From a virus: a stretch of DNA of 64,000 bases. Below the pieces are notes generated by a model. It searched no databases, was not told where the DNA came from, and saw nothing but the letters and a program-made list of their open reading frames with translations. Of the stretch, positions 29,088-49,781 are shown one piece after another. A program made the translations under genes and the position numbers. How positions within the stretch are numbered: the stretch's first letter is position 1; each line of letters opens with the position of its first letter. The stretch covers positions 1 through 64,000 of IMG/VR virus record IMGVR_UViG_3300023174_000058, one strand, 5' to 3'.

Positions 29088-29158
29088 TCTTTCTTCTTTA
29101 CTTCTACAATCAGCCACGGTACAATGCGTACCGTGGTTTTTTGTTTCTAGGAGGGAAC

Positions 29159-30169
29159 ATGGCTATTGCGTTTGCTGATGTGACGGTGGATTTACAATTT
29201 GGAGACTCAGGAAAAGGAAAAATTGCTAGTGCTTTATGCGCCTCTGGCGAATACACACACGTAGTTAGGTATGGCGGGGGCAACAACGCCGGTCATACTA
29301 TTTATCATAACGGGAAGAAATACGTCACTCACTCGATCCCATGTGGCGTCATCCACGGTGTTAAAAGTATTATTGGTCCCGGCTGCGTTGTAAACGTAGA
29401 ACATTTTTTTAATGAAGTAAAGGAACTAGAAGATGGTGGTATCAAGTGTAAGGGCATGGTTTTTATTGCACGAAATGCTCATGTCATCACCGACGAACAT
29501 CTTGTGGAGGATCGACAAGATAAGTCTATCGGGACAACAAAGCGCGGCAACGGCCCAGCCTATCGCGACAAGTACAGCCGCAAGGGCGTACGAGCGGAAC
29601 AAGTAGCGGAACTACAACCTTATCTTATTGATTTACACGAAGAATTCTTTGGAACTGAAAACAATAAACTATGTAGAATTCTTTTTGAGGGAGCTCAAGG
29701 ATTCGGTCTTGACATTGATTGGGGCGATTATCCATATGTAACAAGCAGTCATTGCACTGTTGGTGGCGCTGTGCTAAACGGAGTCGCACCTAGATACATT
29801 CGTAATGTTTGGGGCGTTGCTAAAATTTACGAAACCTATGTAGGCGCAAAACAATTTGAACCCAACGATCCTATCTTTCCTAAAATTAGGGAACTGGGCG
29901 TGGAGTATGGTGCAACAACCGGTCGCCCAAGACAATGCAATTGGCTGAACATGAAAGAACTTGTTAAGGCTATTGAAATCAATGGAGTAAACAAGATTAT
30001 TTTTAATAAAGTTGATATTCTAAAGGAAGCTGGACAGTGGAAGTTATACGGGCTAGATGGGAATATCATGGAATTTGATGACGAAAATTCAATGAAAAGA
30101 TATATTTATAACACACTTCCACATTATGTTGGAGAAATAAAGTTTAGCGACAATCCGCATGGATTTTAA
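29159..30169 (+). CDS. purA: Adenylosuccinate synthetase (short form)
   Basis: QFGDSGKG with catalytic Asp, NAGHT, EGAQG, YPYVTSS, TTGRPR, NKVD. Confidence 0.9.
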   Translation: MAIAFADVTVDLQFGDSGKGKIASALCASGEYTHVVRYGGGNNAGHTIYHNGKKYVTHSIPCGVIHGVKSIIGPGCVVNVEHFFNEVKELEDGGIKCKGMVFIARNAHVITDEHLVEDRQDKSIGTTKRGNGPAYRDKYSRKGVRAEQVAELQPYLIDLHEEFFGTENNKLCRILFEGAQGFGLDIDWGDYPYVTSSHCTVGGAVLNGVAPRYIRNVWGVAKIYETYVGAKQFEPNDPIFPKIRELGVEYGATTGRPRQCNWLNMKELVKAIEINGVNKIIFNKVDILKEAGQWKLYGLDGNIMEFDDENSMKRYIYNTLPHYVGEIKFSDNPHGF

Positions 30170-30874: not shown

Positions 30875-31207
30875 ATGGCCGCTAAAAAACGTAAGTATAA
30901 TAGGACTGCTACGCCAAAACCAAAGCCTAAGCCAAAACTCACTCACGGACAAAAGATTAGCGAAACCAAACAGTTAATCAAAAAGCTATCAGAAAAGTTC
31001 CCTATCGGAGAAATGGTTACAGAAAAGTACCACCCAGAAAATGTAGGTTTAATTTCTGGCAAGATAGTTGCAAAAAGATACTCTGAAGAATACATTCATG
31101 CAACTGTTGATGTTCTTTGGATTACAAACAAATGGTATGGCGACGGACAGGTTTACCAGTATCACACTAACTGTCTCAAGGTTCGCAAGGAAAAGAAAGT
31201 TGTTTAA
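30875..31207 (+). CDS. Basic protein with SH3-like C-terminus
   Basis: FPIGEMV...GLI...DVLW. Confidence 0.5.
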   Translation: MAAKKRKYNRTATPKPKPKPKLTHGQKISETKQLIKKLSEKFPIGEMVTEKYHPENVGLISGKIVAKRYSEEYIHATVDVLWITNKWYGDGQVYQYHTNCLKVRKEKKVV

Positions 31208-32534: not shown

Positions 32535-33051
32535 TACTTTTACAGCAGAATTAGAATACCTTTGGATAAGATTTATTGATGTTGTATTTCGGCAACCTTG
32601 GCATTGGTTTCGCTGTCATTTTATTCCCAAACATAAGTTTCACATTCTTGACCTACGCAGAGCCGGGAATGGTTATGCTTGGGGCTGGTACGATACAGAT
32701 AGTCGCATGCTACACGCTTGTTTTCTTCTGCTAAAAGATTATGTTGAACTAGAGAAGCCATTTGAAAATGTTGATTGGGAAGAAAATGAAATTCATAGCA
32801 ACGTAGCAAAAGAAATTCGTGAACTTTATCACTGGTGGACAGTAGAACGCCCAGCTTCTCGTAAGCAACTGCATGACGATTGGGAAAGTTGTCCAGAACA
32901 TTCTCGTTTTGAAAAAGACGAAAACGGTGACTATAGAATCATCATTCCAGAATCACACAAAATTCTTACGAAACGGCAGTGGGATTACGAGCAAGAAGAC
33001 CAGCACAATCTTGAACGGCTTATAAAGATTAGAGGGTTCTTGTGGACGTAA
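32461..33051 (+). CDS. Hypothetical phage protein
   Basis: LY.WWT..RP and LI.IR..LWT motifs. Confidence 0.55.
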   Translation: MKARNQFMMRLESIFTKIKPYLNRDTFTAELEYLWIRFIDVVFRQPWHWFRCHFIPKHKFHILDLRRAGNGYAWGWYDTDSRMLHACFLLLKDYVELEKPFENVDWEENEIHSNVAKEIRELYHWWTVERPASRKQLHDDWESCPEHSRFEKDENGDYRIIIPESHKILTKRQWDYEQEDQHNLERLIKIRGFLWT

Positions 33052-33254
33052 AATATAAATTTGAAATTGGTGATATGGTAGAGTTTACACTAACCGCTTA
33101 TGGTAGTCCCAAAGCATATCATGGAGTTATATCGGAACGGTATGGCGGCGTAGATCACTACTCAGGTAAGATGAGTGTTTATAAAATTTGTTGTCTAGAA
33201 AAACGAATGATAGAATTTACAATAAGCGAGATACTAATTATAGGAAAAGTTTAG
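33042..33254 (+). CDS. Small GD-motif SH3-like paralogue
   Basis: KFEIGDMV start. Confidence 0.55.
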   Translation: MDVKYKFEIGDMVEFTLTAYGSPKAYHGVISERYGGVDHYSGKMSVYKICCLEKRMIEFTISEILIIGKV

Positions 33255-33266
33255 AGGAAAAAATGA

Positions 33267-33506
33267 TTGGAGCCAAGATTTGATGTTGGAGATATGATTG
33301 AACTAGTGCCAGAAAATTTTCCAGATGATTGGTATGAAGGCATAGGAATAATACTTCAAATAGAAAATGGAAAATATTCTGTGCATGTATTTAGTTTAGT
33401 CAAAACATCAAGAAAAAGACTAACAACATACGTATTAGGTGAAAAGAGAATTCAATTTTCTGTTGTAGAGGCCGATGAAAATGGCTATTTTAAATTACTA
33501 GCCTAA
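33267..33506 (+). CDS. Small GD-motif SH3-like paralogue
   Basis: FDVGDMI...KLLA. Confidence 0.55.
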   Translation: MEPRFDVGDMIELVPENFPDDWYEGIGIILQIENGKYSVHVFSLVKTSRKRLTTYVLGEKRIQFSVVEADENGYFKLLA

Positions 33507-33525
33507 TTATGTTGGAGGTAGTTAA

Positions 33526-34107
33526 ATGGCGCTAATAACAGAGAAACAACTCAAAAGCATTTATCCTAATTGCTATCCAGATAAATTAAAACTATACTGT
33601 GAGGCATTTAATAATATATGGCCGCTGTTTGAAATAACAACTCCAAAACGCATCGCAGCGTTCCTAGGTCAAATTGGTGTTGAAAGCGGTGAATTGAAAT
33701 ACGATAAGGAATTACCAAGCAAATGGAATATGAAAAACCCAAAAGATCCAAGCGAAAAGGTTGGCACATTATACGAAGGGCGTAAGACTCTTGGCAACAT
33801 AATGCCCGGGGATGGTCCTAAGTTTATTGGGCGAGGTATACTTCAATTAACGGGCCGCGCTAACTACGTTGAATACAGCCGTAAATTAAAAATTGATTTA
33901 ACAACCAACCCAGACCTTGCTGCTACACCAGAAGTTAGTGTTAAAATTGCCTGTCAATTCTTTAAGGATCGTAAACTTATAGAAGCAGCAGATAAATGGG
34001 ATCTTGATACGGTAACTGAAAGAGTAAATGGAAAAGTTAAGCTGCATCACGATAAGCGAGTTGCTTACTCTGAGAGAGCTTTAAAAGTTTTAGAAGCGAA
34101 CGTTTAA
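33526..34107 (+). CDS. Glycoside hydrolase family 19 endolysin
   Basis: AAFLGQIGVESG, GDGPKFIGRGILQLTGRANY, VNG. Confidence 0.9.
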   Translation: MALITEKQLKSIYPNCYPDKLKLYCEAFNNIWPLFEITTPKRIAAFLGQIGVESGELKYDKELPSKWNMKNPKDPSEKVGTLYEGRKTLGNIMPGDGPKFIGRGILQLTGRANYVEYSRKLKIDLTTNPDLAATPEVSVKIACQFFKDRKLIEAADKWDLDTVTERVNGKVKLHHDKRVAYSERALKVLEANV

Positions 34108-34203
34108 TGGCCTGTGCTTCTAAAAACACTACAGGTGTCATGACAAGAGCTTGCACCTGTAGTGTCCTTATTAATCCCGCCTTGCGATAGTATCCTTGGC
34201 CCG

Positions 34204-34238
34204 ACGCCCCGCTGGAAACAGATGGGGCGTTTCTTTTT
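34204..34238 (+). terminator. Intrinsic terminator
   Basis: acgcccc...ggggcgt-ttctttt. Confidence 0.7.
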
Positions 34239-34239
34239 G

Positions 34240-34268
34240 TTGACATCCTATGTTACATGTGGCATACT
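34240..34268 (+). promoter_or_regulatory. sigma70-type promoter driving the GDI array (leaderless start)
   Basis: TTGACA-17-CATACT-6nt-ATG(34275). Confidence 0.65.
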
Positions 34269-34274
34269 TACCTC

Positions 34275-34529
34275 ATGGATAGCATATCAGATCTTAATCG
34301 CTTTAAGAAGATGAAGCGCGGCGATATTTGGCTTGATAAAGATGGCGATTATATCCTTATCAAAGATATCTACAAAGGTTGGCAAAAAGATAAAAAAACT
34401 ATAAAATGGGTTTGTATTGATGCTATTATTTTAAGCGCTAATTCCCAAGCCTTTATTGAAGCCAGTTATCATTCTGGATACTTTATTCAAGATTATGTGC
34501 CAGATTGTATTGTAGAAAAGGTAGCATGA
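34275..34529 (+). CDS. GDI-family small paralogue
   Basis: RGDIW...EKVA. Confidence 0.7.
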   Translation: MDSISDLNRFKKMKRGDIWLDKDGDYILIKDIYKGWQKDKKTIKWVCIDAIILSANSQAFIEASYHSGYFIQDYVPDCIVEKVA

Positions 34530-34735
34530 TGAATTCTAAATTCGACGTTGGCGATATAATTATTAAAGATTTTCCAACAGCTGATCCTAATGATTATCGT
34601 ATTATAGTTAAAAAGTATAAAGGTTCTTTCTTTAATAAACAAAGATGGTTATACGATTATTATCATCTAGGAAATAATTATTTGGATTTTGATACTGTTG
34701 ATTATGTAGACCAAACGTTTAAGAAAGTCGCATAA
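34526..34735 (+). CDS. GDI-family small paralogue
   Basis: FDVGDII...KKVA. Confidence 0.7.
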   Translation: MMNSKFDVGDIIIKDFPTADPNDYRIIVKKYKGSFFNKQRWLYDYYHLGNNYLDFDTVDYVDQTFKKVA

Positions 34736-34944
34736 TGGATAAATATTATTATGTAACGTTGCAGGATATATGTTCTGGTGATATTTTATGCAATAGATTT
34801 AATAAGGAAGACAAATATCTTGTACTTGACGATACAATAAACTTAACATTACTTGAGATAAACACAGGTCGTTATATTAATCCGACACCATTAGATTTAA
34901 TTCATAATTTTTTAAAGGTTCTTGACGATGTTTCAAGTGGGTGA
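34735..34944 (+). CDS. GDI-family small paralogue
   Basis: SGDIL. Confidence 0.6.
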   Translation: MDKYYYVTLQDICSGDILCNRFNKEDKYLVLDDTINLTLLEINTGRYINPTPLDLIHNFLKVLDDVSSG

Positions 34945-35095
34945 TATAGTAACATATATTGATGACCTTGACGGATTTCATTATCTTGTGACAAAGATAG
35001 ATCGTCATAAAGGAATTGAATTGCTTTGCTTAGAAGACGGTAGAACAACTTGGGATACTTACAAAGCAATGGATTGCTATGAGATTTATGCATGA
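34928..35095 (+). CDS. GDI-family small paralogue (55 aa, not in ORF track)
   Basis: MFQVGDIVTY...YEIYA translated by hand. Confidence 0.65.
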   Translation: MFQVGDIVTYIDDLDGFHYLVTKIDRHKGIELLCLEDGRTTWDTYKAMDCYEIYA

Positions 35096-35301
35096 ACCCA
35101 AGACCACAGACCGGCGACATCTGGGAAATCTACGGCCCAGCAGGGTACGGTCGTCCCGTACTCGTTGTTGACATTATATTTGATAAGCAGTATAATAGCC
35201 ATGTTGCTATTATGAAACACTTGACCGGGAATCAAATAGTTTTTGAAGCTCCTATTGTTTCTATTCGTCAAGGAGTCGGCATATGGCAAAAAATAGCATA
35301 G
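35092..35301 (+). CDS. GDI-family small paralogue
   Basis: PQTGDIW...QKIA. Confidence 0.7.
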   Translation: MNPRPQTGDIWEIYGPAGYGRPVLVVDIIFDKQYNSHVAIMKHLTGNQIVFEAPIVSIRQGVGIWQKIA

Positions 35302-35483
35302 ATAGTCTATATGATATTGGCGATATAGTACTTTATTTTGGAAAACATTATTGCCTAGTTGTTGATATCCTAAACCCACCAGCGAGTAACCTAAGCGTTT
35401 ATAAAATGTTAAATCTTAAAACAGGAGTAAAACAATCTTGGTTTACACCTGACGTTGACAGGAACAGCGAGTTTATCGCATGA
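35283..35483 (+). CDS. GDI-family small paralogue
   Basis: YDIGDIV...EFIA. Confidence 0.7.
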   Translation: MAKNSIDSLYDIGDIVLYFGKHYCLVVDILNPPASNLSVYKMLNLKTGVKQSWFTPDVDRNSEFIA

Positions 35484-35677
35484 CAAACCGATTTCAAATA
35501 GGTGACATAGTATCCTTTGACCAGCCCGTAGATATTTCTTCAGGTCAATTGAGTTATTTTATAATAAGCGACATAGATTTTACTATACAAAAATATACAG
35601 CTTTACTTATAGGAACAGACGCAACGTATACATATACAATCTATACAATGGATTCAATTTTCTATAAGGTGGCGTAA
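35480..35677 (+). CDS. GDI-family small paralogue
   Basis: FQIGDIV...YKVA. Confidence 0.7.
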   Translation: MTNRFQIGDIVSFDQPVDISSGQLSYFIISDIDFTIQKYTALLIGTDATYTYTIYTMDSIFYKVA

Positions 35678-35871
35678 TGTTTGCTATTGGTGACATTTGG
35701 ATGTGGACCAAAAATAGTGCCGATCATCCAACCGATCCAGAATATAATTATTTTCTTATTCTTGATGATGAGTGGGGACATAAAGTTCTTTATTTAAAAG
35801 ATGGTAGATTTGCGCATTATGCAACTGGCAATTTACAATACAATAAAGTTCATCTCAAGTTTATCGCATGA
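35677..35871 (+). CDS. GDI-family small paralogue
   Basis: FAIGDIW...KFIA. Confidence 0.7.
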   Translation: MFAIGDIWMWTKNSADHPTDPEYNYFLILDDEWGHKVLYLKDGRFAHYATGNLQYNKVHLKFIA

Positions 35872-36143
35872 GCAAGAAAAACAAAACGCCTAAATCAATA
35901 GGCCATAAATATAAATTTAGCTATCCTCCCAAGTTTGGTAAGGGAGACATCTTGCGCTATCATGTGCATGACACAGAGGATGCAACCTTTGGTGAAGATC
36001 ACCGGATTATGATCTTAGACATCAGAGAGTATTCGCTAAGTACTGAAAAGATGTTCCAGTACCTTTGTTATTGGCTTGACGAAGGACACTATGTAGAGTA
36101 CAATACTTGGTATGTAGATTTCCACTTTACGAAGGTAGCATGA
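35868..36143 (+). CDS. GDI-family small paralogue
   Basis: FGKGDIL...TKVA. Confidence 0.7.
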   Translation: MSKKNKTPKSIGHKYKFSYPPKFGKGDILRYHVHDTEDATFGEDHRIMILDIREYSLSTEKMFQYLCYWLDEGHYVEYNTWYVDFHFTKVA

Positions 36144-36343
36144 TGGACGCACCAGCCAAAGGCGATATTTGGATGGATGATGAAGGCCAGTGTTTTCTTT
36201 ATCTAACAGATCCTGTTTATAGCACGGATGGTGTTTTAAGAGCAACAACGCTATGGCTAAACACGGGGCTTAAAGAAAGAAGTGAATTTAGTTTTAATCC
36301 CGAAACACTTACACTTTATTATTGGTGGACAAAGGTAGCATAA
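36140..36343 (+). CDS. GDI-family small paralogue
   Basis: PAKGDIW...TKVA. Confidence 0.7.
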   Translation: MMDAPAKGDIWMDDEGQCFLYLTDPVYSTDGVLRATTLWLNTGLKERSEFSFNPETLTLYYWWTKVA

Positions 36344-36345
36344 CC

Positions 36346-36537
36346 ATGAAATATGATATTGGTGATATTGTTTATGCATCGTCTATTAATAGGCATGCGT
36401 TAATAACTAACTATCTAAAAGATGAGCACTTCCCAAAAGCTGGTTTTCTAAAGTATCAATTGTTTTGTTTAGAAGCCGGGACATTTCATGATGAAGACAT
36501 CGACAAGGCAGATGATCTTACCGTAAAGGTAGCATGA
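36346..36537 (+). CDS. GDI-family small paralogue
   Basis: YDIGDIV...VKVA. Confidence 0.7.
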   Translation: MKYDIGDIVYASSINRHALITNYLKDEHFPKAGFLKYQLFCLEAGTFHDEDIDKADDLTVKVA

Positions 36538-36725
36538 TGTACAAAAAAGGCGACATAATCAAGATGGAAGATCCTTATGGCCCTGCTGGATCGACATTTT
36601 ATAAACATTACTTGATCCTTGACACACGCCAGCATTACGTGTATAATGTTCTTTGTGTTGAAACGGGGAATGCAGATATTATGAATAAAAATTATGTTCG
36701 TAAACATGCGGAGTTTGTAGCATGA
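36534..36725 (+). CDS. GDI-family small paralogue
   Basis: YKKGDII...EFVA. Confidence 0.7.
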   Translation: MMYKKGDIIKMEDPYGPAGSTFYKHYLILDTRQHYVYNVLCVETGNADIMNKNYVRKHAEFVA

Positions 36726-36907
36726 GCAAACCACAGGTTGGGGACATTTGGGAATCTACTATTATTAATAAAAAGTATCTATTAGTAGAGCTTACATTTG
36801 AAGACGAAACTCATAAAACTTTCAGTGTCTTTCCTATTGGACATAACGATTCACTACTATTTGCGAATTTTTATAACGATCTAGCCGGATGGGAGTTTGT
36901 AGCATGA
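36722..36907 (+). CDS. GDI-family small paralogue
   Basis: PQVGDIW...EFVA. Confidence 0.7.
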   Translation: MSKPQVGDIWESTIINKKYLLVELTFEDETHKTFSVFPIGHNDSLLFANFYNDLAGWEFVA

Positions 36908-37095
36908 AACTCAAATACGAGAAGGGCGACATCGTAGGACTTTATGATAACTCTACAAAACAAATCTTTGAATACCTTCTTATCACAAACTTAGATTATA
37001 AATATTATCATTGCTATAGCTTGACTAACGGATGCGATAGCAAAGAAACTTTTTATGTTCTTGAGAAAGGTTTTTGGTCGGAGAAGGTAGCATGA
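36904..37095 (+). CDS. GDI-family small paralogue
   Basis: YEKGDIV...EKVA. Confidence 0.7.
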   Translation: MKLKYEKGDIVGLYDNSTKQIFEYLLITNLDYKYYHCYSLTNGCDSKETFYVLEKGFWSEKVA

Positions 37096-37286
37096 GCCGC
37101 AAATATAATAAGGGTGACATAATAAAAGCTGATTATCAAACTGACGGCAATATTTGGTATTTGCTTATTACCGATATACCAAAAGGTGGTTATCACTACC
37201 ACTACATTTGTTTAAATAACGGGCAGCAAGATCTAGCGGTATCAAGAATAATTGATACCTCGCCCCATTATAAATTATATGCCTAG
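37092..37286 (+). CDS. GDI-family small paralogue
   Basis: YNKGDII...KLYA. Confidence 0.7.
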   Translation: MSRKYNKGDIIKADYQTDGNIWYLLITDIPKGGYHYHYICLNNGQQDLAVSRIIDTSPHYKLYA

Positions 37287-37302
37287 CAGTGAGGGTAGCA
37301 TA

Positions 37303-37491
37303 ATGCGCGTAAAGGTTGGCGACATCATAGGCATCAGGCATTACAGCGGCGCTGGTGTCACAGAGGGCAACTATTATCTTATTACCAAAACCCGTAATCA
37401 TTTCCGCTATGTAGCTATCTTTCTTGGGGATGGCACAACAACCGAACTAGATAAAAGTTATGTTGACAACTATGGGGTAAAGGTGGCATAA
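37303..37491 (+). CDS. GDI-family small paralogue
   Basis: VKVGDII...VKVA. Confidence 0.7.
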   Translation: MRVKVGDIIGIRHYSGAGVTEGNYYLITKTRNHFRYVAIFLGDGTTTELDKSYVDNYGVKVA

Positions 37492-37724
37492 TGCCAGCAC
37501 AGAAGCACAAGAAGATCAAAAGGGAACCAAAGTATGCGGTGGGCGACATACTCCGCATGGATTTTGGTATACTTGGTCATAAAAAAGAGCGACTTGTTTA
37601 TTATGCAATCATAACCCGGGTGGGTAAGAGCAGCTATGACTACAATTACCTAGACAATTGGGAAGATGAAACTGAAAGCCATGACTTTGTGGACGAGCAC
37701 AAAGGGATAACACTCCATGCCTAA
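37491..37724 (+). CDS. GDI-family small paralogue
   Basis: YAVGDIL...TLHA. Confidence 0.7.
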   Translation: MPAQKHKKIKREPKYAVGDILRMDFGILGHKKERLVYYAIITRVGKSSYDYNYLDNWEDETESHDFVDEHKGITLHA

Positions 37725-37914
37725 ATATAAACCCAAGTACAAGGCGGGCGATATATTAAAAGCAGATTACGGGGTTGATGAGAAAGTTTGGTATATGCTG
37801 ATTACAAAAGTAGGAGTAAACCTATACGACTATCTTTATTTGAACAACGGGAAGCAAAGTCAAACAGCAATCATGGCGGTTGACCGCTCCCATTATATAA
37901 GGTACTATGCCTAG
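37717..37914 (+). CDS. GDI-family small paralogue
   Basis: YKAGDIL...RYYA. Confidence 0.7.
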   Translation: MPKYKPKYKAGDILKADYGVDEKVWYMLITKVGVNLYDYLYLNNGKQSQTAIMAVDRSHYIRYYA

Positions 37915-37928
37915 CAGTGGAGGCACTC

Positions 37929-38117
37929 ATGCCTAAGTATAATGTAGGCGACATCATAAATATAAATTATTATCCTGATGGCAGTAGTGGCTTCTATGCA
38001 CTAATAACCAGTATGGATGAGCGTACCTATTATTTCAACTATCTTGATACTTGGGAAGCTGATTGTTGGGACATTAGGATAGCAGATAGTGGATCATCCA
38101 TAACGTTCTATGCATAA
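37929..38117 (+). CDS. GDI-family small paralogue
   Basis: YNVGDII...TFYA. Confidence 0.7.
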   Translation: MPKYNVGDIININYYPDGSSGFYALITSMDERTYYFNYLDTWEADCWDIRIADSGSSITFYA

Positions 38118-38133
38118 TAGTCGGAGCATCACT

Positions 38134-38322
38134 ATGCCTAAATATGATGTTGGGGACATTATAAAGATTACACCAATCGACGACTCTTCTAGAGCTTGGT
38201 ACGCGCTAATAACCAAAATGGATAGTAGTAGGTATTACTATTTCTATTTTGATAACGGTGATCCTGATTGGGCAGCTTTTGAAGGTCTTGATTATAGTGA
38301 CAGGATAAGCCTATATGCCTAA
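38134..38322 (+). CDS. GDI-family small paralogue
   Basis: YDVGDII...SLYA. Confidence 0.7.
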   Translation: MPKYDVGDIIKITPIDDSSRAWYALITKMDSSRYYYFYFDNGDPDWAAFEGLDYSDRISLYA

Positions 38323-38357
38323 ACATAATGTATAATTAGTGGCTAATTATTATAGTT

Positions 38358-38606
38358 ATGCCATCAGACAAACCATACGACCATCCAGATATCGGACCAC
38401 CACAATTTGATGTAGGCGACATAATAACATATCACATCATTACTACGGGCGGCGTAACAATAGAACATTACCATTGTCTTGTAATGGATTTATACTTTCA
38501 TCACATACAAGAACATTGGTATTATACCCTATTAAATCTAAATGGCGGCAGAACAGCAGATCATCCAACCCACCATATAGATGGGCATTTTCAACTTTTA
38601 CTTTAA
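38358..38606 (+). CDS. GDI-family small paralogue
   Basis: FDVGDII. Confidence 0.65.
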   Translation: MPSDKPYDHPDIGPPQFDVGDIITYHIITTGGVTIEHYHCLVMDLYFHHIQEHWYYTLLNLNGGRTADHPTHHIDGHFQLLL

Positions 38607-38660
38607 AACTTATCAATTCTTGTATGTTTATGCTACAATGCTAAAGTTGGGGAACATTAG

Positions 38661-39572
38661 ATGGGCATGAAACAGTGTAGCATTTGTAGACAGCTAAGAG
38701 ACATCGATAAGTTTGGATATGATAGTGGCAACCCAGATGGCCGCCATCGTGAGTGCAGGGATTGCAGAAAAATAAAAGATAAACAAATAAGAAACAAGCA
38801 TAATCCAAACAATATAGATCCACGCGATTGGATAGGCAAAGAGGAACCATTCCCAAACACATCGCTTATAATTAAATCTGCCGTTCGTGGTACCCCAATG
38901 GTAAGTGGGCGTAACGGGAAAAGTTATTATAATCAAAACGTACTTGTTGATTGCCTATGCGGCATCAAAGATATATCCCTGCGAACAACCAATATTAAAA
39001 AGGGGCACACTGTATGTTGCTCCTCAACTTGCCAATATTCCGTAAGAAACCAACAGGCCAAGTTAGCCGGTGAACAGTTTATACAAAAAGCAAAACTAGT
39101 TCATGGCGAGAAGTATGACTACTCAAAGGTTGCTTATAAGAATAAGGAAACAAAAATTACAATAGGTTGCCCAAAGCACGGGGAATACCAACAAAACCCA
39201 AGCAGCCATCTTGCAGGTAGAGGTTGCACAAGATGCACAAATAGTATCTCAAGGGGCGAAACTGATTGGCTTGATAGCCTCGGCATCCCAAAAGAACAAA
39301 GAAACATATGGATCTACATAGAGGGATATGGTAAGATAAAGCCAGATGGATACGATCCCCTAACAAATACAATATATGAATACCACGGTGATTACTTCCA
39401 CGGCAATCTAAAGATATACGAACCGGACGAAATAAACCGCAACAATAAAAAAACAATGGCCCAACTGTTCCAAGACACAGTTAAGCGTAGCGCAGCAATA
39501 AGGGATGCCGGTTATAATCTTGTATCAATATGGGAAAGCGATTGGAAGAAGCAGGGGAAGGGGAACCACTAG
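38661..39572 (+). CDS. Putative homing endonuclease (Zn modules + DUF723-like + Vsr/PD-(D/E)xK-like domain)
   Basis: HGEKYDYS..CPKHG..HL.GRGC; PDGYD...YEYHGDYFHG...IWESDW. Confidence 0.75.
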   Translation: MGMKQCSICRQLRDIDKFGYDSGNPDGRHRECRDCRKIKDKQIRNKHNPNNIDPRDWIGKEEPFPNTSLIIKSAVRGTPMVSGRNGKSYYNQNVLVDCLCGIKDISLRTTNIKKGHTVCCSSTCQYSVRNQQAKLAGEQFIQKAKLVHGEKYDYSKVAYKNKETKITIGCPKHGEYQQNPSSHLAGRGCTRCTNSISRGETDWLDSLGIPKEQRNIWIYIEGYGKIKPDGYDPLTNTIYEYHGDYFHGNLKIYEPDEINRNNKKTMAQLFQDTVKRSAAIRDAGYNLVSIWESDWKKQGKGNH

Positions 39573-39591
39573 AAGGGGAAGGGGCATAGTA

Positions 39592-39813
39592 ATGCTAGAA
39601 ACAAAGTTCAAAAAGGGCGACATAATAATCCGTACAAGCGAGTGGGGCGACACAATAGCATTGGTAACAGGAGTAGAAGCCGCACAAGATACATTCCCAG
39701 ATGATTTGCCGTATTACCAATTATTGTACCTAACTAGCCCTTACTCAGAAATACCAAATAGCCAGCAACTAGCAACATGGATAGTAGATAAAATATATAA
39801 ACTAAAAAGCTAG
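39592..39813 (+). CDS. GDI-family small paralogue
   Basis: KFKKGDII. Confidence 0.6.
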   Translation: MLETKFKKGDIIIRTSEWGDTIALVTGVEAAQDTFPDDLPYYQLLYLTSPYSEIPNSQQLATWIVDKIYKLKS

Positions 39814-40678: not shown

Positions 40679-41764
40679 TTACTTCTTGGCCTTCTTGCTA
40701 CCGCCAAGGAGATCGACAACGTGCTGCTTAACGCTCTTGCCGTCCACAGTCAACTTGTGCATTTCAAGGATCAGGCCCATGATAGCGGGCGACTTGCTTG
40801 CATCGGTGTAAAACTTCATGCCCGCCTCGCTGGGCAGACGGAGGAAGAAACGGAGGACGTTATCACGCTCCTCGACCGGCATATCCTTGGAAACACGCCC
40901 GCTGGCAAGAACCTTGTCAACAAGGGCGGTGTATTCACCCAGTTTGTAACCCTTCATGCCGTCGAAACGACCGGAGAGAATATCGTCAACGGAGACAACC
41001 CGCTCCAGATTCTTGATATAGTCACGCGAGGCAAGCGCAGCCTCCATGCCGATATAACCGCTGGCGATGTTGTAATACACATCCAGCCGCGTCTTGAAAT
41101 CGTCGCCTTCAAGGATGCCCGCCTTCGTAACGGTATCCGAAAAACGCTTCCACGAACGGCGGGAGGGATAAATCTTGTTAGGCTCAAACTCCCCCTTGTG
41201 CTCCAGATGCGCGCTCTGATCGTTAATAAAGTCCACAATCAGGGGATGAATGTTACCGGCGCGGCCATAATCCAGCCAATCGCCCACAGACGGTTCAATG
41301 TCGAAAGCGGTCCAGCGGTCCAGTTCGGCCGGGTCCATGTCGTTAACCGCGTACTGGGCACCGTGCGTGCCGCCGTTCACAGCGGCGAAAATAAGCGTCT
41401 CAGGGTGCAGACGATGACCGTTGATCGTACGGGAATCCGTCAACTGGAAAATGCCCTGACGGACCTCAGTGGTGCCGCGATCCACCTCATCCAGAAAGAG
41501 GACAACGGGGCGTTCGCACGCTTCCTTGAACCAATCCGGGGGGTTCCAAGAGGTACGGTTGCCGTCGATGACGGGCAGACCCACAAGATCGCCCTCAGTC
41601 ATCTGCGAGACACGGCGCTCGACAACCGGCAGACCACGCTTCGCCGCAAACTGATAGACCAGTTCGCTCTTGCCGATACCGTGCCGCCCGCGCAGCATGA
41701 TAGGATGCTTGGCGTCCGCGATAAGGGAAACGAACGAGTTAAACGTCTTGAAGTCGATAGCCAT
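40679..41764 (-). CDS. MoxR-family AAA+ ATPase
   Basis: GRHGIGKS, LFLDEVDR, AAVN, MDPAELDRW. Confidence 0.88.
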   Translation of the reverse strand: MAIDFKTFNSFVSLIADAKHPIMLRGRHGIGKSELVYQFAAKRGLPVVERRVSQMTEGDLVGLPVIDGNRTSWNPPDWFKEACERPVVLFLDEVDRGTTEVRQGIFQLTDSRTINGHRLHPETLIFAAVNGGTHGAQYAVNDMDPAELDRWTAFDIEPSVGDWLDYGRAGNIHPLIVDFINDQSAHLEHKGEFEPNKIYPSRRSWKRFSDTVTKAGILEGDDFKTRLDVYYNIASGYIGMEAALASRDYIKNLERVVSVDDILSGRFDGMKGYKLGEYTALVDKVLASGRVSKDMPVEERDNVLRFFLRLPSEAGMKFYTDASKSPAIMGLILEMHKLTVDGKSVKQHVVDLLGGSKKAKK

Positions 41765-42043
41765 TACCTTACCCCTTTTTGGTGACGCTCCATACGTCAA
41801 CCGTTTGGAGAGAATAACCTAAGTCGCTGCCCTATGCAACAACTTTTTTTGTTCTATCGGTAGAGTGGGCCTCTCCTGCATCCCGCTCAACCGTGAAAGG
41901 CAATATACAGGAGGCGGGCGATCCCGTCAAGCGCTAAAAAAAGGCTAGGCGGCAGGGGCTAGCCCCCCAACCCTGCCCTTTTTTGCGGGGCAGGAAAAAG
42001 CCCGCCCCCCATTTCGGGAGAGGCGGGCAGGGTTCCTGTGCTA

Positions 42044-43255
42044 TTAGTTCAGTTTCTTCTTAATGGGGATGATACGCTCGCCGTTTCGGAAGTATGGATT
42101 TTCCGCACCATTAAGGTCGGTCATCCACATACGGCGGCACTTGGAGGGTTTAGGCGCGGGAGCCATCATATCAGTCAGGACGATATGCCCGTCAAAGGTG
42201 CCAGCCTTGTTGACATACTCAGTCGGGGCGTCGAAATCGGTGCCGCCCATCATAACGCGGGTTGCCTTAGCCCGCTGGCCCTTCTTCCATTCATACACAA
42301 GGGTAGGCTCCACACGGGTATCGAACGGAATGACGGTAAAGGTTGCCAGTTTGGAAAGACTGTTAAGTTCGCCAAAGAACGCTTCAAGCAGTTCATCCGA
42401 AACGCTGCCGCTCTGGTCAATCGAAATGGCGATATGCGCGGAGCGGTTCGACTTCTTGCCGGGATGGATGTAAGGGAAACGCTTGTTGATACGTTTCACC
42501 GTGCTGGACTTGTGCGAACGCTGTGCATTACCAACGAACATACGGAGGACGGCTTTCCAGTCAATCGTACCATTAATGAAACGCAAAATCTCCTTCCGCA
42601 TATCATGCGGCACGCTGCCCCAACCGTTGCCCCCCTTGTTGTTGGCTTCCTCTGCGGCACCCTTCATAATCTCGCGCAGACGCTCCTTTGCCATAGCCTT
42701 GACTTCTTCCGGCACGTTGCCCTCGCCCCAGCCGTCGTGCGAGTCCATGTTACCGCACGAGCCATCGCAGGTGGGACCGTCGCCGCCATCCTCGCCGCTG
42801 GCATGGTTGCCGTCGCACTTACCGCCCTTTTCGTCCTGCTTGTCCTTCTCCAGCCGCTTATAGTAGTCCTCTGCGGTCAAACCATCGGGATAGTTAAACT
42901 TCTCAGGCATAAGGGCAAAATCGGGCAGTTCACCCTTAAGATGGCAGTTAATGGACAGATCGGTAGCAAAGTTCCAACGCTTACTGATCTTCTTGCCATC
43001 GGGCGAACGTCCGAGACAATGATCGAGCATAAGATGGTAAAGTTCGTGCTTTAGAACACCGCGACGATGGTTGTCGGGCAACTTCTCAAAAAACTCCTCG
43101 TTATAGACCATCTCGAAATGACCGTCATCCATAACGCGCACGCCAGCGGTAGGGACCGACTTGGTGGGACGCTTGGAAATATGACGCGACACGGCAGCGA
43201 AAAAAGACTCGTTCAAGAGCAGACGGAACATATCGTTTTCAAGATCGTAAGCCAT
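42044..43255 (-). CDS. Metallopeptidase-like + VWA protein (DUF2201-type)
   Basis: HELYH, WNFATDLSIN, MIDAS DQSGS, GGTDF, LTD. Confidence 0.85.
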   Translation of the reverse strand: MAYDLENDMFRLLLNESFFAAVSRHISKRPTKSVPTAGVRVMDDGHFEMVYNEEFFEKLPDNHRRGVLKHELYHLMLDHCLGRSPDGKKISKRWNFATDLSINCHLKGELPDFALMPEKFNYPDGLTAEDYYKRLEKDKQDEKGGKCDGNHASGEDGGDGPTCDGSCGNMDSHDGWGEGNVPEEVKAMAKERLREIMKGAAEEANNKGGNGWGSVPHDMRKEILRFINGTIDWKAVLRMFVGNAQRSHKSSTVKRINKRFPYIHPGKKSNRSAHIAISIDQSGSVSDELLEAFFGELNSLSKLATFTVIPFDTRVEPTLVYEWKKGQRAKATRVMMGGTDFDAPTEYVNKAGTFDGHIVLTDMMAPAPKPSKCRRMWMTDLNGAENPYFRNGERIIPIKKKLN

Positions 43256-44907: not shown

Positions 44908-45126
44908 CTATGCGATAAACTTCCAACGCCTATTATCTGCTGCAATCTTACTTACCCCCTCTTTTGAGAGAGGGGCATCACCGTGGGTAAGACCAATCAT
45001 CTTAACCGTATCGGCGTCATAGAACTTTGGATCACACTCTATGTATTCTGCGATAAGATAATAAAAGTTCTTACCCAATCCATAGAAGCACCAGATATCG
45101 CCTACCTGTGGAGTACGGCTGCTCAT
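44908..45126 (-). CDS. GDI-family small paralogue
   Basis: PQVGDIW...KFIA. Confidence 0.7.
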   Translation of the reverse strand: MSSRTPQVGDIWCFYGLGKNFYYLIAEYIECDPKFYDADTVKMIGLTHGDAPLSKEGVSKIAADNRRWKFIA

Positions 45127-45308
45127 GCTACCCACCTGTAGTACTGAAAACAGGAGATATCGGTTTCATCCTCGCCCCAAGCATTATCCAGCCACAGAAT
45201 AAAATAACGATGCCCCCACTTGCTGTACCTACGCACGATGCTAGTCACCATAAAGTGTGCCTGTGAGCCGGGGGAATAGTAGATGTCGCCTACCCGTGGA
45301 TCATACAT
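45123..45308 (-). CDS. GDI-family small paralogue
   Basis: PRVGDIY...RWVA. Confidence 0.7.
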   Translation of the reverse strand: MYDPRVGDIYYSPGSQAHFMVTSIVRRYSKWGHRYFILWLDNAWGEDETDISCFQYYRWVA

Positions 45309-45529
45309 TAGGCGAGCCTCTCACAATCTTTTAAAACACTAAAATCAAGTGACCACTCCCCATAGCCAGTATCCCAGTAGTTCGACTCCATTACAAGCAC
45401 TTCGTAATGCGGGTAGTGCTTTTCAGGCAGCCGCTTACCTACCAGAAGCACCGCATAGTTTGCAACCCCTTGCATTGGTTGCCGCATCTGGTACCGCAAA
45501 ATGTCGCCCGTGCAGACCGTTGAAATCAT
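45308..45529 (-). CDS. GDI-family small paralogue
   Basis: TGDIL...ERLA; leaderless promoter upstream. Confidence 0.65.
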   Translation of the reverse strand: MISTVCTGDILRYQMRQPMQGVANYAVLLVGKRLPEKHYPHYEVLVMESNYWDTGYGEWSLDFSVLKDCERLA

Positions 45530-45566
45530 GGAAGCACTCTACCAGAGAAGGGAGTGACTGTCAAGG

Positions 45567-45642
45567 TGGCGGTCCCGGCTGGATTTGAACCAGCGTAACT
45601 CTGTTTAGAAGACAGATGCCTAATCCGCTAGACTACGGGACC
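45567..45642 (-). tRNA. tRNA-Arg(UCU)
   Basis: Cloverleaf, anticodon loop CT-TCT-AA, GGTTCAAATCC, encoded CCA. Confidence 0.9.
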
Positions 45643-45734
45643 GTAAACAAGAACAAAAAGGTGCCCCAAGCCAGTTATTCCTTCTTAGGAGCAGGCTGCA
45701 TAGGCGTTGCGCAAACGAGGAACCTATGCATTAT

Positions 45735-45809
45735 TGGTGGGGAAGGTGGGGCTCGAACCCACAACTAACGGCTTAAAAGGCCGCTACTCTACCATTGAGT
45801 TACTTCCCC
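45735..45809 (-). tRNA. tRNA-Lys(UUU)
   Basis: Cloverleaf, CT-TTT-AA, GGTTCGAGCCC, CCA. Confidence 0.92.
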
Positions 45810-45816
45810 GAAAAGT

Positions 45817-45902
45817 TGGTGCCCAAGGCCGGACTCGAACCGGCAAGCCTGTTACGGCGGAAGATTTTAAGTCTTCTGTGTATACCATTTCACCACTTGG
45901 GC
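45817..45902 (-). tRNA. tRNA-Leu(UAA)
   Basis: Class II cloverleaf, CT-TAA-AA, CCA. Confidence 0.92.
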
Positions 45903-45905
45903 AAG

Positions 45906-45996
45906 TGGTCGGCCCGCTAGGAGTCGAACCTAGTCTAGGCGGTCATCTACCGCAAAACGATTATAAGTCGTTCTCGCATTGCCGATGCACGGGCCG
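45906..45996 (-). tRNA. Atypical tRNA, anticodon UAU, long variable arm
   Basis: 7-bp acceptor, 4-bp D stem with 5-nt loop, AACGA-CTTATAA-TCGTT, GCGGT/ACCGC V-arm, T arm, ACCA. Confidence 0.7.
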
Positions 45997-46002
45997 ATTA
46001 TT

Positions 46003-46332
46003 CTATTTTTCTAGTTCATCGTGAAGTTCACTATGGCAATTATGACAGACCATAATGCACTTGTCAAGTTCTTCTTTTATCTTCTCCCACTTGCGAGCAT
46101 GGGAACCAGAGATCCCAAAGTCTTTTTGGGAAGGGTCGAGATGGTGAAAGGCTAGGGCACGCTTACTCTTGCAGTACCCGCACCTCTCACATTTCCCGCC
46201 TTTATATTCGACACACCGATCTTTCAAGTCGTGTCGCTTACGGTTTGACATACAGGAGTTACAGACAGTCCTAGTATGCCCTTTCTTTCTATCATAGTCA
46301 AACGATCTTTTACACTCTTTACACTCAGTCAT
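46003..46332 (-). CDS. HNH endonuclease
   Basis: YKGGKCERCGY...FHHLDP..K...C..VCHNCHSELH. Confidence 0.85.
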   Translation of the reverse strand: MTECKECKRSFDYDRKKGHTRTVCNSCMSNRKRHDLKDRCVEYKGGKCERCGYCKSKRALAFHHLDPSQKDFGISGSHARKWEKIKEELDKCIMVCHNCHSELHDELEK

Positions 46333-46385
46333 GTGGGAGCCTCCTATGCTCTAACTAGTGCGAGAGCGGAGATTGTTCCCACATT

Positions 46386-46408
46386 TCTAACCGCTAGGCT
46401 ACAGGACC
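46386..46408 (-). pseudogene. 5' fragment of a tRNA gene
   Basis: GGTCCTGTAGCCTAGCGGTTAGA acceptor/D-arm start with no continuation. Confidence 0.45.
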
Positions 46409-46446
46409 ATCGAACAAAAACATCTTACCACATCACCGGCAGGACT

Positions 46447-46602
46447 TCAAGAAGTTTCTTTTGAGGCAATAAAGTCACGCAGTACCTTACGCAGATCCAT
46501 CAGCCGATCCTCGTCGCTCTCGTCAAAGCGCCCAGTAAACAGCACCTCGTTGATTGCTTCGAGCAGTACGATGGCAAGATCCCTGTCTACTTCGATGTTC
46601 AT
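46447..46602 (-). CDS. Small hypothetical protein (leaderless)
   Basis: TTGACA-17-TAGGAT-7nt-ATG. Confidence 0.5.
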   Translation of the reverse strand: MNIEVDRDLAIVLLEAINEVLFTGRFDESDEDRLMDLRKVLRDFIASKETS

Positions 46603-46634
46603 GGAGAGCATCCTATCACTTGTGCGAGGGGTTG

Positions 46635-46748
46635 TCAAGCGGGCCGTGGAGTCGAACCACGCAGCCCCAACCCTCTAACAGTTAGAGGTTATGTTAGCGG
46701 ATGGAACTCAGTCCGCCAGTTACCAAGTACCCCGTACCGCCCGCTTGA
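46635..46748 (-). ncRNA. tRNA-like structured RNA
   Basis: 10-bp terminal stem, canonical T arm CGTGG-TTCGACT-CCACG, own promoter. Confidence 0.55.
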
Positions 46749-46859
46749 TGAACGTATAGTACCCCGGATCGTGTCACTTGTCAACGAACATAAAAGGAGG
46801 TAGGAGAAGGGCTAGCCCCCCTGCCCCCCGCTTTTATTGCGGGGGTGGGGTTGGTCGTG

Positions 46860-47609: not shown

Positions 47610-47750
47610 CGTTGCCTCCTTCGCTCTCCATGAGCGTATGCGGACTATATATGGTCCCCTGCATTGTGTCAAGCGACAAAAAAAGGTGTTCGGCGGGGGC
47701 TAGCCCTCCCCCAAGGGCCTTTAATCAATGCTTGTAAAGACACCAGCGGT

Positions 47751-48850: not shown

Positions 48851-48934
48851 GTTGGGGATCATATCGGGGGAAGGGCTGGGTGTCAAGGGGTATTTGCGGA
48901 GAGGGAGGGGCTAGCCCCACAGGCGGGCAAAAAC

Positions 48935-49640: not shown

Positions 49641-49781
49641 GGAGGGATAATATCGGTGGTAGGCAGCGAAGTCAAGAGCAAATAAAATGGCTATGGAGGA
49701 GGGCTAGCCCCTCCCAGCCCACCTTTTATCATGCTTGACGGGTAGGAGAGGAAGGGGTACTATGCAAGGAGGAGGGTTGCT

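Follow-up and report, generated by a model that had tools for sequence, protein, structure and literature searches.

Thirty-five diverged copies of a small protein family with a predicted SH3/Tudor-like barrel fold in a large freshwater phage

What use could a phage have for 35 diverged copies of one tiny protein? This question is raised by a large uncultivated freshwater phage with a virus record of 162 kb. We analysed positions 1 to 64,000 of this record (64,000 nucleotides; the window). In a first-pass annotation, 24 micro-proteins had been described as a tandem array at 33042-39813 and interpreted as a library of binders, which might counter host defence, act as decoys or adapt the host range.

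Two arrays outside the structural module

As shown in Table 1, the 24 open reading frames of the array are all present, and their HMM scores place them all in one family. However, the family is not confined to this array: 10 further members form a minus-strand set (44908-49640) within a block of 51% GC, and another copy lies at 67.4 kb, beyond the window. Thus, this is a genuine multigene family; the phage genome has 35 copies, of which 34 fall within the window. A more sensitive pass over the whole window gave no members past the 34. Every member is a stand-alone protein of about 55-91 amino acids. The genes follow one another closely in head-to-tail order, and most junctions are start/stop overlaps of the form ATGA or TAATG. 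In the plus-strand array, an endolysin gene splits m01 and m02 from the other 22 members (34311-39813), whose run is broken by nothing but the gene of an HNH endonuclease. This endonuclease gene is missing from a close relative, L052.

The arrays have replication/nucleotide-metabolism genes on one side and a block of early-type promoters on the other. Because phage structural proteins include small beta-barrels, we considered whether the members might be virion or assembly components, for example decoration proteins or fibre chaperones. This is hardly probable, since the arrays lie outside the structural module and carry sigma70-type promoters instead of a late motif.

Table 1. Positions of the family members and of other features. 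Bits are scores with the external-only HMM.
Feature	Position	Strand	Length (aa)	C-terminus	Bits	Remark
m01	33042-33254	+	70	GKV	16.6	GTG start; weak in leave-one-out
m02	33267-33506	+	79	LLA	12.3	TTG start; weakest member
m03	34311-34529	+	72	EKVA	16.1	90 aa from alternative start 34257
m04	34526-34735	+	69	KKVA	41.0	ATGA overlap with m03
m05	34735-34944	+	69	VSSG	17.4	divergent; leave-one-out 2.4 bits; last 17 nt overlap m06
m06	34928-35095	+	55	EIYA	44.9	
m07	35092-35301	+	69	QKIA	25.1	
m08	35283-35483	+	66	EFIA	38.6	
m09	35480-35677	+	65	YKVA	35.0	
m10	35677-35871	+	64	KFIA	29.5	
m11	35868-36143	+	91	TKVA	43.1	basic N-terminal extension
m12	36140-36343	+	67	TKVA	27.4	
m13	36346-36537	+	63	VKVA	37.0	
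m14	36534-36725	+	63	EFVA	46.5	
m15	36722-36907	+	61	EFVA	35.9	
m16	36904-37095	+	63	EKVA	35.9	
m17	37092-37286	+	64	KLYA	55.0	modelled member
m18	37303-37491	+	62	VKVA	37.9	
m19	37491-37724	+	77	TLHA	26.5	
m20	37717-37914	+	65	RYYA	43.1	
m21	37929-38117	+	62	TFYA	33.8	
m22	38134-38322	+	62	SLYA	37.7	
m23	38358-38606	+	82	QLLL	47.0	
m24	39592-39813	+	73	KLKS	20.2	last plus-strand member
n01	49416-49640	-	74	KKVA	54.7	first of minus-strand set
n02	49207-49416	-	69	TKEA	37.1	
n03	48935-49210	-	91	HRVA	37.4	
n04	48644-48862	-	72	EEDK	29.0	GSVW replaces GDIW
n05	48438-48647	-	69	RMVA	40.5	GTG start overlaps n04 stop
n06	48277-48441	-	54	RFVA	42.2	
n07	48086-48280	-	64	RFVA	41.8	
n08	45308-45529	-	73	ERLA	22.2	
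n09	45123-45308	-	61	RWVA	30.7	
n10	44908-45126	-	72	KFIA	35.0	last minus-strand member
35th copy	67425-67616					beyond window
Endolysin	33526-34107					separates m02 from m03
HNH endonuclease	38661-39572	+				phrog_559/681; not a family member; interrupts array
sigma70-like promoter	49675-49647	-				of n01
Promoter	48886-48858	-				of n04
Promoter	45564-45536	-				of n08
Perfect sigma70-type match	35168-35196	+				TTGACA-17-TATAAT, 12/12; consensus match only; inside array
Perfect sigma70-type match	36619-36647	+				12/12; inside array
GGGGCTAGCCCC-type palindrome	49700-49711					just upstream of n01 promoter
GGGGCTAGCCCC palindrome	48907-48918					between n03 and n04 promoter
ClpP-family gene	17730-18386					
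ClpP-family gene	64721-65218					

A shared signature that is new to curated libraries

An HMM was made from 119 outside homologs, each less than 50% identical to any window member, although these homologs had themselves been retrieved with a profile of the window members. With this external-only HMM, all 34 window members scored 12.3-55 bits; the best unrelated open reading frame in the window reached 3.5 bits and the best of 680 shuffles 8.3 bits. In a leave-one-out test of the 24 plus-strand members, 17 exceeded 17 bits, whereas shuffled sequences reached about 13 at most. The likeness of the members thus goes well beyond chance. The GDI start, YYLIT-like strand and mostly Ala end noticed in the first-pass annotation were also borne out: G8 is present in 34, D9 in 33 and I10 in 31 of the 34 members, a [YH]xL[IVL] strand, Y36, L39, L41, G44 and D55 are conserved, and 29 members end in Ala. 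About 12 anchor positions are kept, namely G-D-I leading into strand 1, [YH]xL[IV] in strand 2, YxxLxL-xx-G spanning strand 3 and its turn, one Asp and the C-terminal Ala. All other positions vary, and the lengths of the strand 1-2 and strand 2-3 loops range over 7-17 and 6-20 residues, respectively. The interiors are highly diverged as had been stated, but the divergence extends beyond them and the loops to residues of the strands. Because variation falls on strands as well as loops, a defined hypervariable binding face would be conjectural.

The first-pass annotation had recognised no described family, and searches of Pfam, PHROGs, NCBIfam and PDB sequences likewise gave no match to this one. 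No curated family (Pfam, PHROGs, NCBIfam) was matched by more than two of the 34 members, with all matches below the cut-offs, and no Pfam Tudor, SH3, KOW or chromo family was hit at E ≤ 1 by any of the 34. The profile search of the PDB gave a single chance match (E 1.6). The family is present in none of the curated libraries and is new to them.

Predicted fold

One member, m17, was modelled with AF2 (pLDDT 93, pTM 0.78). The model has five strands (residues 10-14, 21-28, 35-40, 46-50 and 60-62). It resembles solved Tudor, PWWP and SH3 domains (TM 0.56-0.73), predicted viral models (TM 0.6-0.8), the TraI 2B-like SH3 subdomain (Z 8.3) and Tudor, UvrD-CTD, CarD-RID and KOW domains (Z 5.5-6.7), but these are matches to a very common small barrel, and the Z and E values are unremarkable by the tools' own scale. 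Its neighbours in BFVD and the ESM Atlas include many small uncharacterised phage proteins. The members are thus predicted to be five-strand SH3/Tudor-like beta-barrels of about 60 residues, in line with the 5-stranded SH3/KOW/Tudor-like barrel suggested earlier. This predicted barrel is what they share with Tudor/SH3/KOW/chromo-like domains (PHF1, SMN Tudor, TraI, UvrD-CTD, CarD-RID). In contrast to those domains, the phage proteins do not belong by sequence to any Pfam Tudor, SH3 or KOW family, stand alone rather than forming parts of larger proteins, and carry N-terminal GDI and C-terminal hydrophobic-Ala signatures of their own. The family does not look Sm/Hfq-like: in that type an N-terminal helix precedes a bent five-strand sheet, and this helix is absent from the m17 model, as is the Sm motif.

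The barrel class includes KOW (NusG/Spt5), Sm/Hfq and Sul7d/Cren7 proteins and the Tudor-like RNA polymerase-binding domains of CarD, UvrD/PcrA and Mfd. The members might therefore be regulators directed at nucleic acids or RNA polymerase, which tune host transcription or translation. UvrD-CTD bound to the RNA polymerase lobe (7egs, Z 6.6), CarD (4l5g, Z 6.5), KOW domains and EF-P domain I are among the structural neighbours, and a takeover of transcription would suit early expression. Nevertheless, we consider this idea quite unlikely: the Z values fall inside the background range stated for the tool, the model has neither the helix nor the motif mentioned above, and 35 different regulators for one polymerase are hard to explain. 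Moreover, most members are acidic (22 of the 34 have a pI below 6), and this speaks against a direct interaction with DNA or RNA. Because of these pI values, because only three members are basic and because the FWY content is 14.9% (8.6% in the large proteins of the window), the members, if binders, would more likely bind proteins than nucleic acids.

Promoters and palindromes

Promoters were taken as matches to the sigma70 consensus. In total, 73 sigma70-like sites were counted, as compared to 37.8 ± 5.3 expected, and matches of 10-12 out of 12 immediately precede n01, n04 and n08 and also fall within the plus-strand array. These near-consensus promoters suggest early expression of the family, whose locus occurred in no RNA run. 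In addition, the GGGGCTAGCCCC palindrome is found in 15 copies at 41.9-55.8 kb (0.03 expected by chance), every one with a promoter nearby. Promoter and stem-loop are paired in the minus-strand set only (49700/49675 and 48907/48886); the plus-strand array has promoters and no intergenic stem-loops.

This layout resembles the hyperplastic regions of T4-like phages with their PeSL (promoter-early stem-loop) cassettes (PMC2839356, Arbiol et al. 2010; PMC4122927, Comeau et al. 2014). In both cases there are blocks of small, non-essential, lineage-variable open reading frames, strong sigma70-like promoters paired with stem-loops (here in the minus-strand set), and whole-cassette indels and swaps between close relatives. 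However, the genes of PeSL regions are for the most part unrelated ORFans; in this phage, a single protein family occupies the slots 35 times. Translational coupling also sets the plus-strand array apart, and the replication genes of this phage (a DnaB-type helicase and an 1149-aa polymerase) are not T4-like. Recombination through such motifs is putative here.

Selection and turnover of the copies

For four ortholog pairs, dN/dS was 0.17 (m17 vs L052), 0.18 (m18), 0.18 (m19) and 0.42 (m22). These values indicate amino-acid-level constraint on individual copies, and by this measure the genes are real and under purifying selection. Most members have orthologs in related phages, with identities of 47-98%, while paralogs within the genome are at most 45% identical and the best outside match of each member exceeds its best in-genome paralog. 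Therefore, the family is an old inherited paralog set and not a recent burst. The earlier proposal that neighbours form subfamilies by local duplication holds for one subfamily (KYxxGDI...YA/HA; m17 and m19-m22, 38-45% identical); a recent burst is not compatible with the low identities. Identity between adjacent members is slightly higher than in shuffled order (26.4 vs 24.0%, p=0.012).

At one end, L052 matches the phage with 94% nucleotide identity, but it has cassettes inserted and missing, and these indels fall at gene junctions. Close relatives thus gain and lose whole cassettes. When copies were counted across phages, as first suggested from the sequence, the syntenic relative G006 carried at least 24, the syntenic relative G007 at least 16 and the sister phages G001-G004 none, so that the locus is conserved but its content varies. 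Metagenome contigs join ~48435 to ~45120, between two family junctions, with low depth and extra letters at the joints.

Such variation between close relatives, the sister phages without any copy, these contig joints and the PeSL-like palindrome and promoter layout of the minus-strand block (PMC2839356, PMC4122927) are consistent with largely dispensable cargo of a hyperplastic region, in which recombination at promoter/stem-loops and conserved junctions would shuffle the cassettes and so let them persist, with individual copies mattering little. This is decidedly unlikely, because the dN/dS values point to constraint on single copies, the orthologs are kept across phages at higher identity than paralogs, and none of the 34 window members looks like a pseudogene.

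The C-terminal Ala and the binding repertoire

The C-terminal motif and the gene junction are intertwined: GCA-TGA embeds ATG, and AAG-GTA yields the SD-like AAGG. Because the Ala is retained at 11 of 15 junctions without a start/stop overlap (codons GCC, GCA or GCT) and in 110 of 141 outside homologs, it is selected at the protein level, with only its GCA codon serving the ATGA overlap. The ends [KR][VIL]A and [KR][KR][VIL]A occur in 12 and 2 of the 34 window members and in 54 and 18 of the 141 outside homologs, respectively. E. coli substrates of ClpX with C-motif-2 end in RAKKVA (YbaQ), HARKVA (PaaA) and RRKKAI (MuA) (Table 2, PMC9775585), and a sizeable minority of the members likewise end in basic/hydrophobic-Val-Ala-COOH (KKVA, RKVA, TKVA). 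We treat this resemblance as a lead only.

If the [WFY]-x-[KRF]-[VI]-Ala-COOH tail were a ClpX-type degron, the members could be self-limiting early proteins with rapid turnover, or decoys that saturate the ClpXP of the host. Selection of the Ala at the protein level would suit this idea, and phage ClpP-family proteins, for which there are two genes (Table 1), might take part. However, ClpP-like genes of phages frequently encode prohead proteases, the phage yielded no Clp unfoldase, and the 784-aa protein encoded next to clpP lacks any Pfam domain. Furthermore, degrons are normally exposed and flexible, whereas this tail lies in or next to a confident last strand (E60-62, pLDDT 96), and many members end in FVA, FIA or YA without a basic residue. 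A protease-coupled role is thus unlikely, although it would be compatible with binding.

The idea of a library of binders fits the sequence data, and our preferred reading, with a probability of about 0.5, is a host-takeover or counter-defence repertoire of early-expressed barrels. Host RNA polymerase would transcribe the genes early from the sigma70-type promoters, and each barrel would act as an independent small binding module with its own macromolecular target in the infected cell; these targets would most likely be host proteins. The hydrophobic-Ala C-terminus would be common to the whole family, either capping the last strand or serving as a shared handle for recognition. In a very improbable extension, the repertoire would serve targeted degradation: barrels would bind different host proteins and the [KR]-V-Ala-COOH tail would hand each target to ClpXP, composed of host ClpX and the phage's own ClpP-family subunit. 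If so, the phage would clear many host factors early in infection with one protease.

The sister phage G001 carries another tandem family, "GDL...LGMI...IEW", with about 15 copies of 71-99 amino acids (alignment A2), in the same syntenic slot and also as a low-GC tandem array plus a high-GC block. Its predicted fold is KOW/Tudor-like (pLDDT 89, Z 5-6), with the first three strands in register with the 35-copy family. Strand 5 and the Ala are replaced by a long helix at the C-terminus and by a basic tail; if targeted degradation were true, this family, whose tail differs, would be coupled to another machine. The hhalign probability between the two families is only 11%, and they are mutually exclusive between genomes.

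Members of the family and their sequence signature

The first-pass annotation had listed 24 small ORFs on the plus strand (m01-m24, positions 33042-39813) as one family in which it recognised no described one. All 24 ORFs are there, and most of them were recovered by a leave-one-out HMM, far above shuffled controls. Some window ORFs that had served as controls scored 30-40 bits; they proved to be ten additional family members on the opposite (minus) strand (n01-n10), which bring the window family to 34. No further copies were found in the window with a more sensitive profile. When the whole record was searched with a profile, 35 places were found, the 35th at 67425-67616, outside the window. 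Furthermore, we prepared an independent HMM from 119 outside homologs, each <50 % identical to any window member. This HMM, whose source sequences had themselves been retrieved via a profile of window members, scored 34/34 window members at 12.3-55 bits, whereas the best unrelated ORF of the window reached 3.5 bits and the best of 680 shuffles 8.3 bits. Thus, the cross-matches support one family comprising all 34 members. The absence of a described family was also borne out: no member matched Pfam, PHROGs, NCBIfam or PDB sequences, and no description of such a family was found in the literature. We attribute the weak single matches (m06 to DUF1108 and phrog_401, one member to GroES, and several to CBMs) to chance.

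The signature was derived from the alignment of the 34 members and per-column counts. It starts with Met and 3-25 residues, frequently [PYF]-x-[VKI], and continues with an invariant Gly, Asp (33/34) and Ile (31/34). Strand 2 has the motif [YH]-x-L-[IVL]; strand 3 and a fixed two-residue turn read Y-x-x-L-x-L-x-x-G. The anchor spacing is 7-17 residues in the first loop (I10-Y23) and 6-20 residues in the second (I26-Y36). Strand 4 is variable, the short helix after it bears a conserved Asp, and the final strand ends with [WFY]-x-[KFL]-[VIY]-Ala. Beyond about 12 anchors, entropy is high throughout (strands, 2.5-3.7 bits; loops, 3.3-3.4 bits). FWY residues make up 14.9 % of the family versus 8.6 % of the large proteins of the window. 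Most members are acidic (pI < 6 in 22/34) and only 3/34 are basic, which argues against nucleic-acid binding as their role.

Predicted fold

An AlphaFold2 model of m17, computed with the family alignment, has a pLDDT of 93 and a pTM of 0.78 and contains five strands and a short helix. Foldseek against the PDB gave Tudor, PWWP and SH3-like domains (TM 0.56-0.73, E > 0.04). With a Foldseek-independent aligner, the best neighbor was the SH3-like 2B subdomain of TraI (Z 8.3), and Tudor, UvrD-CTD, CarD, KOW, EF-P domain I, FeoA and DUF1653 followed at Z 5.5-6.7. These neighbors and the model agree with the SH3/KOW/Tudor-like barrel proposed from the sequence. In BFVD and the ESM Atlas, the neighbors include many small uncharacterised phage proteins, several from the same phage; the ESM Atlas look-alikes fall only in unnamed clusters. 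The predicted SH3/Tudor-like barrel is a very common fold and is silent on function.

The C-terminal alanine

The conserved C-terminal Ala is the most tractable oddity of the family. At a typical gene junction the DNA reads AAG-GTA-GCA-TGA-TG: the Ala codon GCA and the TGA stop yield the ATG of the next gene, and AAG-GT supplies an SD-like AAGG. Therefore, the KVA end could be a mere artefact of the ribosome-binding site and overlap. At ATGA/TAATG-overlap junctions, the protein ends with Ala in 18/19 cases, and the codon bias is real (GCA in 15/18). However, Ala is also kept at 11/15 non-overlap junctions, where the codons are GCC (5), GCA (5) and GCT (1), and among outside homologs it is terminal in 110/141, with a penultimate Val in 85. 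In comparison, a terminal Ala was found in 3/24 non-family plus-strand window genes checked. The artefact explanation is thus rejected. The persistence of the terminal Ala at non-overlap junctions and in outside homologs argues for selection at the protein level; the choice of codon would additionally aid translational coupling.

As a lead from analogy, the tail might be a ClpX-type C-terminal degron. It is similar to the C-motif-2 degrons of E. coli ClpX, RAKKVA (YbaQ) and HARKVA (PaaA) (Table 2 of PMC9775585). A [KR][VIL]A end is present in 12/34 window members and 54/141 outside homologs, and the phage possesses two ClpP-family genes. However, no recognisable Clp unfoldase was found when the phage was searched for one, and in the m17 model the tail adjoins a strand that is well ordered, an unusual setting for a degron.

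Selection, age and cassette turnover

A 2.7-kb ENA contig from a close relative (L052) carries ten tandem family genes and is 94 % identical to the window in nucleotide sequence at one end. For four ortholog pairs, the dN/dS values were 0.17, 0.18, 0.18 and 0.42, which indicates purifying selection on the family genes. This selection and the retention of orthologs argue against the idea that the genes are junk. The contig has cassettes absent from the window and does not possess m20, m21, m23 and the HNH gene. Because the two differ in gene content, whole cassettes turn over among close relatives.

Local duplication had been proposed from the resemblance of neighbors. This idea holds in part. 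Genes m17 and m19-m22, the KYxxGDI...YA subfamily, form a local cluster, and neighboring genes are slightly more similar than under random order (p = 0.012). However, a recent duplication burst is rejected: paralogs in the genome are at most 45 % identical (mean, 22 %), and the best outside match of every member beats its best paralog (five self-hits excluded), many of these matches being clear orthologs at 47-98 % identity. Taken together, the old paralogs, the outside orthologs and the similarity of adjacent genes point to a tandem duplication long ago, followed by inheritance with gains and losses.

Distribution and a parallel family in a sister phage

When 1.84 billion representative proteins were searched with a profile, 194 matched at E <= 1e-3, nearly all of them stand-alone proteins of 54-98 aa. 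Among the 150 matches listed, 145 were from outside the window; GDI was present in 134/145 and the Ala end in 111/145. Metagenomes add ~190 more clusters of the family at 50 % identity. In GenBank phages, no relative was found by megablast of the locus or tblastn of two members, and m17 and n01 as single queries for related loci also gave no relatives. Some 50 related IMG/VR contigs were obtained with the DNA polymerase as the query. Four near-complete relatives, whose polymerases are 52-72 % identical, possess zero family copies; for the closest of them, G001 (174 kb), this was seen in an unfiltered six-frame HMM scan. Two fragments were retrieved via a DNA pattern: G006, with at least 24 family copies within 19.5 kb, and G007, with at least 16. 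Both are syntenic with the window: a PurA-like gene, an endolysin gene and the plus-strand array are followed, as in the window, by a convergent AAA ATPase gene, a DUF2201 gene, tRNAs and minus-strand copies.

The syntenic slot of G001 is occupied by a tandem run of about ten ORFs (71-98 aa), and about five more lie in its high-GC block. Their signature is GDL-x-M-S...LGMI...Y-x-IEW with a basic tail. In the model of this G001 family (pLDDT 89), a long C-terminal helix accompanies four strands; the structural neighbors of the model are KOW and Tudor domains. This family was not found in the genome of the window phage, where its profile had no match anywhere. An hhalign comparison of the two families gave a non-significant probability of 11 %, with their first three strands in register, and remote homology is not established. 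Because a different family fills the syntenic slot, the locus seems to be a dedicated site for mini-barrel arrays, at which the family has been swapped among lineages.

The GEMV...LISGKIV...VLWI pattern of a 110-aa ORF in the window (30875-31207) is reminiscent of the G001-type family; this ORF scored only ~6-7 bits against the window-family profiles.

Expression signals and functional reading

The region from 31 to 50.5 kb has 73 matches to sigma70-type promoters versus 37.8 +/- 5.3 in shuffles. Besides the two perfect sites in the plus array, m19 is immediately preceded by an 11/12 site, and n01, n04 and n08 by sites of 10-11/12. The palindrome GGGGCTAGCCCC occurs 15 times in 41.9-55.8 kb versus 0.03 expected, each time near a near-consensus sigma70 promoter. 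This combination matches the promoter-early stem-loop (PeSL) cassettes in the hyperplastic regions of T4-like phages, where non-essential ORFs are flanked by strong early promoters and stem-loops, through which modules are shuffled (PMC2839356, PMC4122927). Judging from the sigma70 consensus matches, the family is probably expressed early. The genomic location argues against a role of the members in the virion.

Small-barrel orphans are common in phages. Phage early regions are rich in small orphan genes with mostly unknown roles; where a role has been worked out, it is often the inhibition of the host's defences or machinery. A repertoire of binders is the most economical functional reading; here we infer the binding step and, with it, the whole function of the family. 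Each barrel would be a small binding module aimed at a different target in the infected cell. We assign a probability of about one half to the overall reading: that this lineage-restricted family, in no curated library and ancient yet plastic, consists of stand-alone SH3/Tudor-like barrels that are probably expressed early and act as such modules against different targets. The fold and the genomic setting are already known; the novelty is that one family occupies this setting 35 times, together with its signature and the exchange of families at a conserved locus. One scaffold in 35 natural variants is thus present in a single genome, and this 60-residue scaffold is natural, confidently predicted and has a simple sequence signature. 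With the metagenome clusters, the orthologs and presence or absence in relatives, and the parallel G001 family, the variants form a comparative set on small-binder diversification in phages. This is an unusually good study system, given that the family is so expanded, that the expansion is conserved and that a parallel family exists. If the members target host proteins, they would rank among the largest known phage effector repertoires with a single fold.

Genome and neighborhood

The record is 162,187 bp long (completeness estimate, 89 %). The window encodes a DnaB-type helicase, ribonucleotide reductase, a 1149-aa DNA polymerase, GroEL, a PurA/PurZ-like enzyme, an endolysin and five tRNAs. 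The full stretch is present in only one public run, a lake-water metagenome; partial matches come from freshwater or aquatic runs, and none of the public runs listed for the locus is an RNA run. The GC content is 33-42 % except in a block at ~40-56 kb (48-56 %), where genes are mostly on the minus strand. An assembly chimera at the 38 %/51 % switch is ruled out: a zero-mismatch metagenome contig covers 37459-42295 and bridges the switch at ~40 kb, and the syntenic relatives G006, G007 and G001 have the same split. Therefore, the GC bimodality is a trait of the lineage, and nothing points to an assembly error or a recent transfer.

Coordinates of features (window positions unless another sequence is named)
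Feature	Position	Strand	Remark
Minus-strand family members	49640-48086 (seven), 45529-44908 (three)	minus	in high-GC block
Perfect 12/12 sigma70-type sites	35168, 36619		in plus array
HNH endonuclease	38661-39572		splits plus array
MoxR-like AAA_5 ATPase and DUF2201 protein	40679-43255	minus	DUF2201 protein: metallopeptidase-like N domain and VWA
tRNAs Arg-TCT, Lys-TTT, Leu-TAA, Ile-TAT	45567-45996	minus	high-GC block, between family members
ClpP-family gene (218 aa), 784-aa ORF directly downstream, then GroEL gene	17730-22343
Second ClpP-like gene	64721-65218 of the full record (G000)		just past window end
PurA/PurZ-like adenylosuccinate-synthetase homolog	29141-30169		phrog_1211, E 8e-70
IMPDH/GMP-reductase-like gene	14137-15168
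G001 tandem mini-protein family (~15)	L058:11774-14076, L057:12053-13834		sister phage

The 784-aa ORF has no Pfam or PHROG match; with its ClpP-family and GroEL neighbors it may form a phage protein-quality-control module. The AAA_5/DUF2201 pair lies where the two arrays converge and is conserved, at 52-68 % identity, in G001, G006 and G007. The four clustered tRNAs all decode A-ending codons, and all four are kept in G007 (L141 11760-12208).

Low-depth contigs in two runs join ~45120 to ~48435 (junctions n09|n10 and n05|n06). Such a joint, which would remove n06-n09 together with a 270-aa gene and the tRNAs, may have arisen by recombination at the conserved GGTAGCATGA junction. High-depth contigs, also from two runs, connect 38777 with 40184 via 32 other letters. 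This points to related, commoner genomes without the HNH-endonuclease segment.
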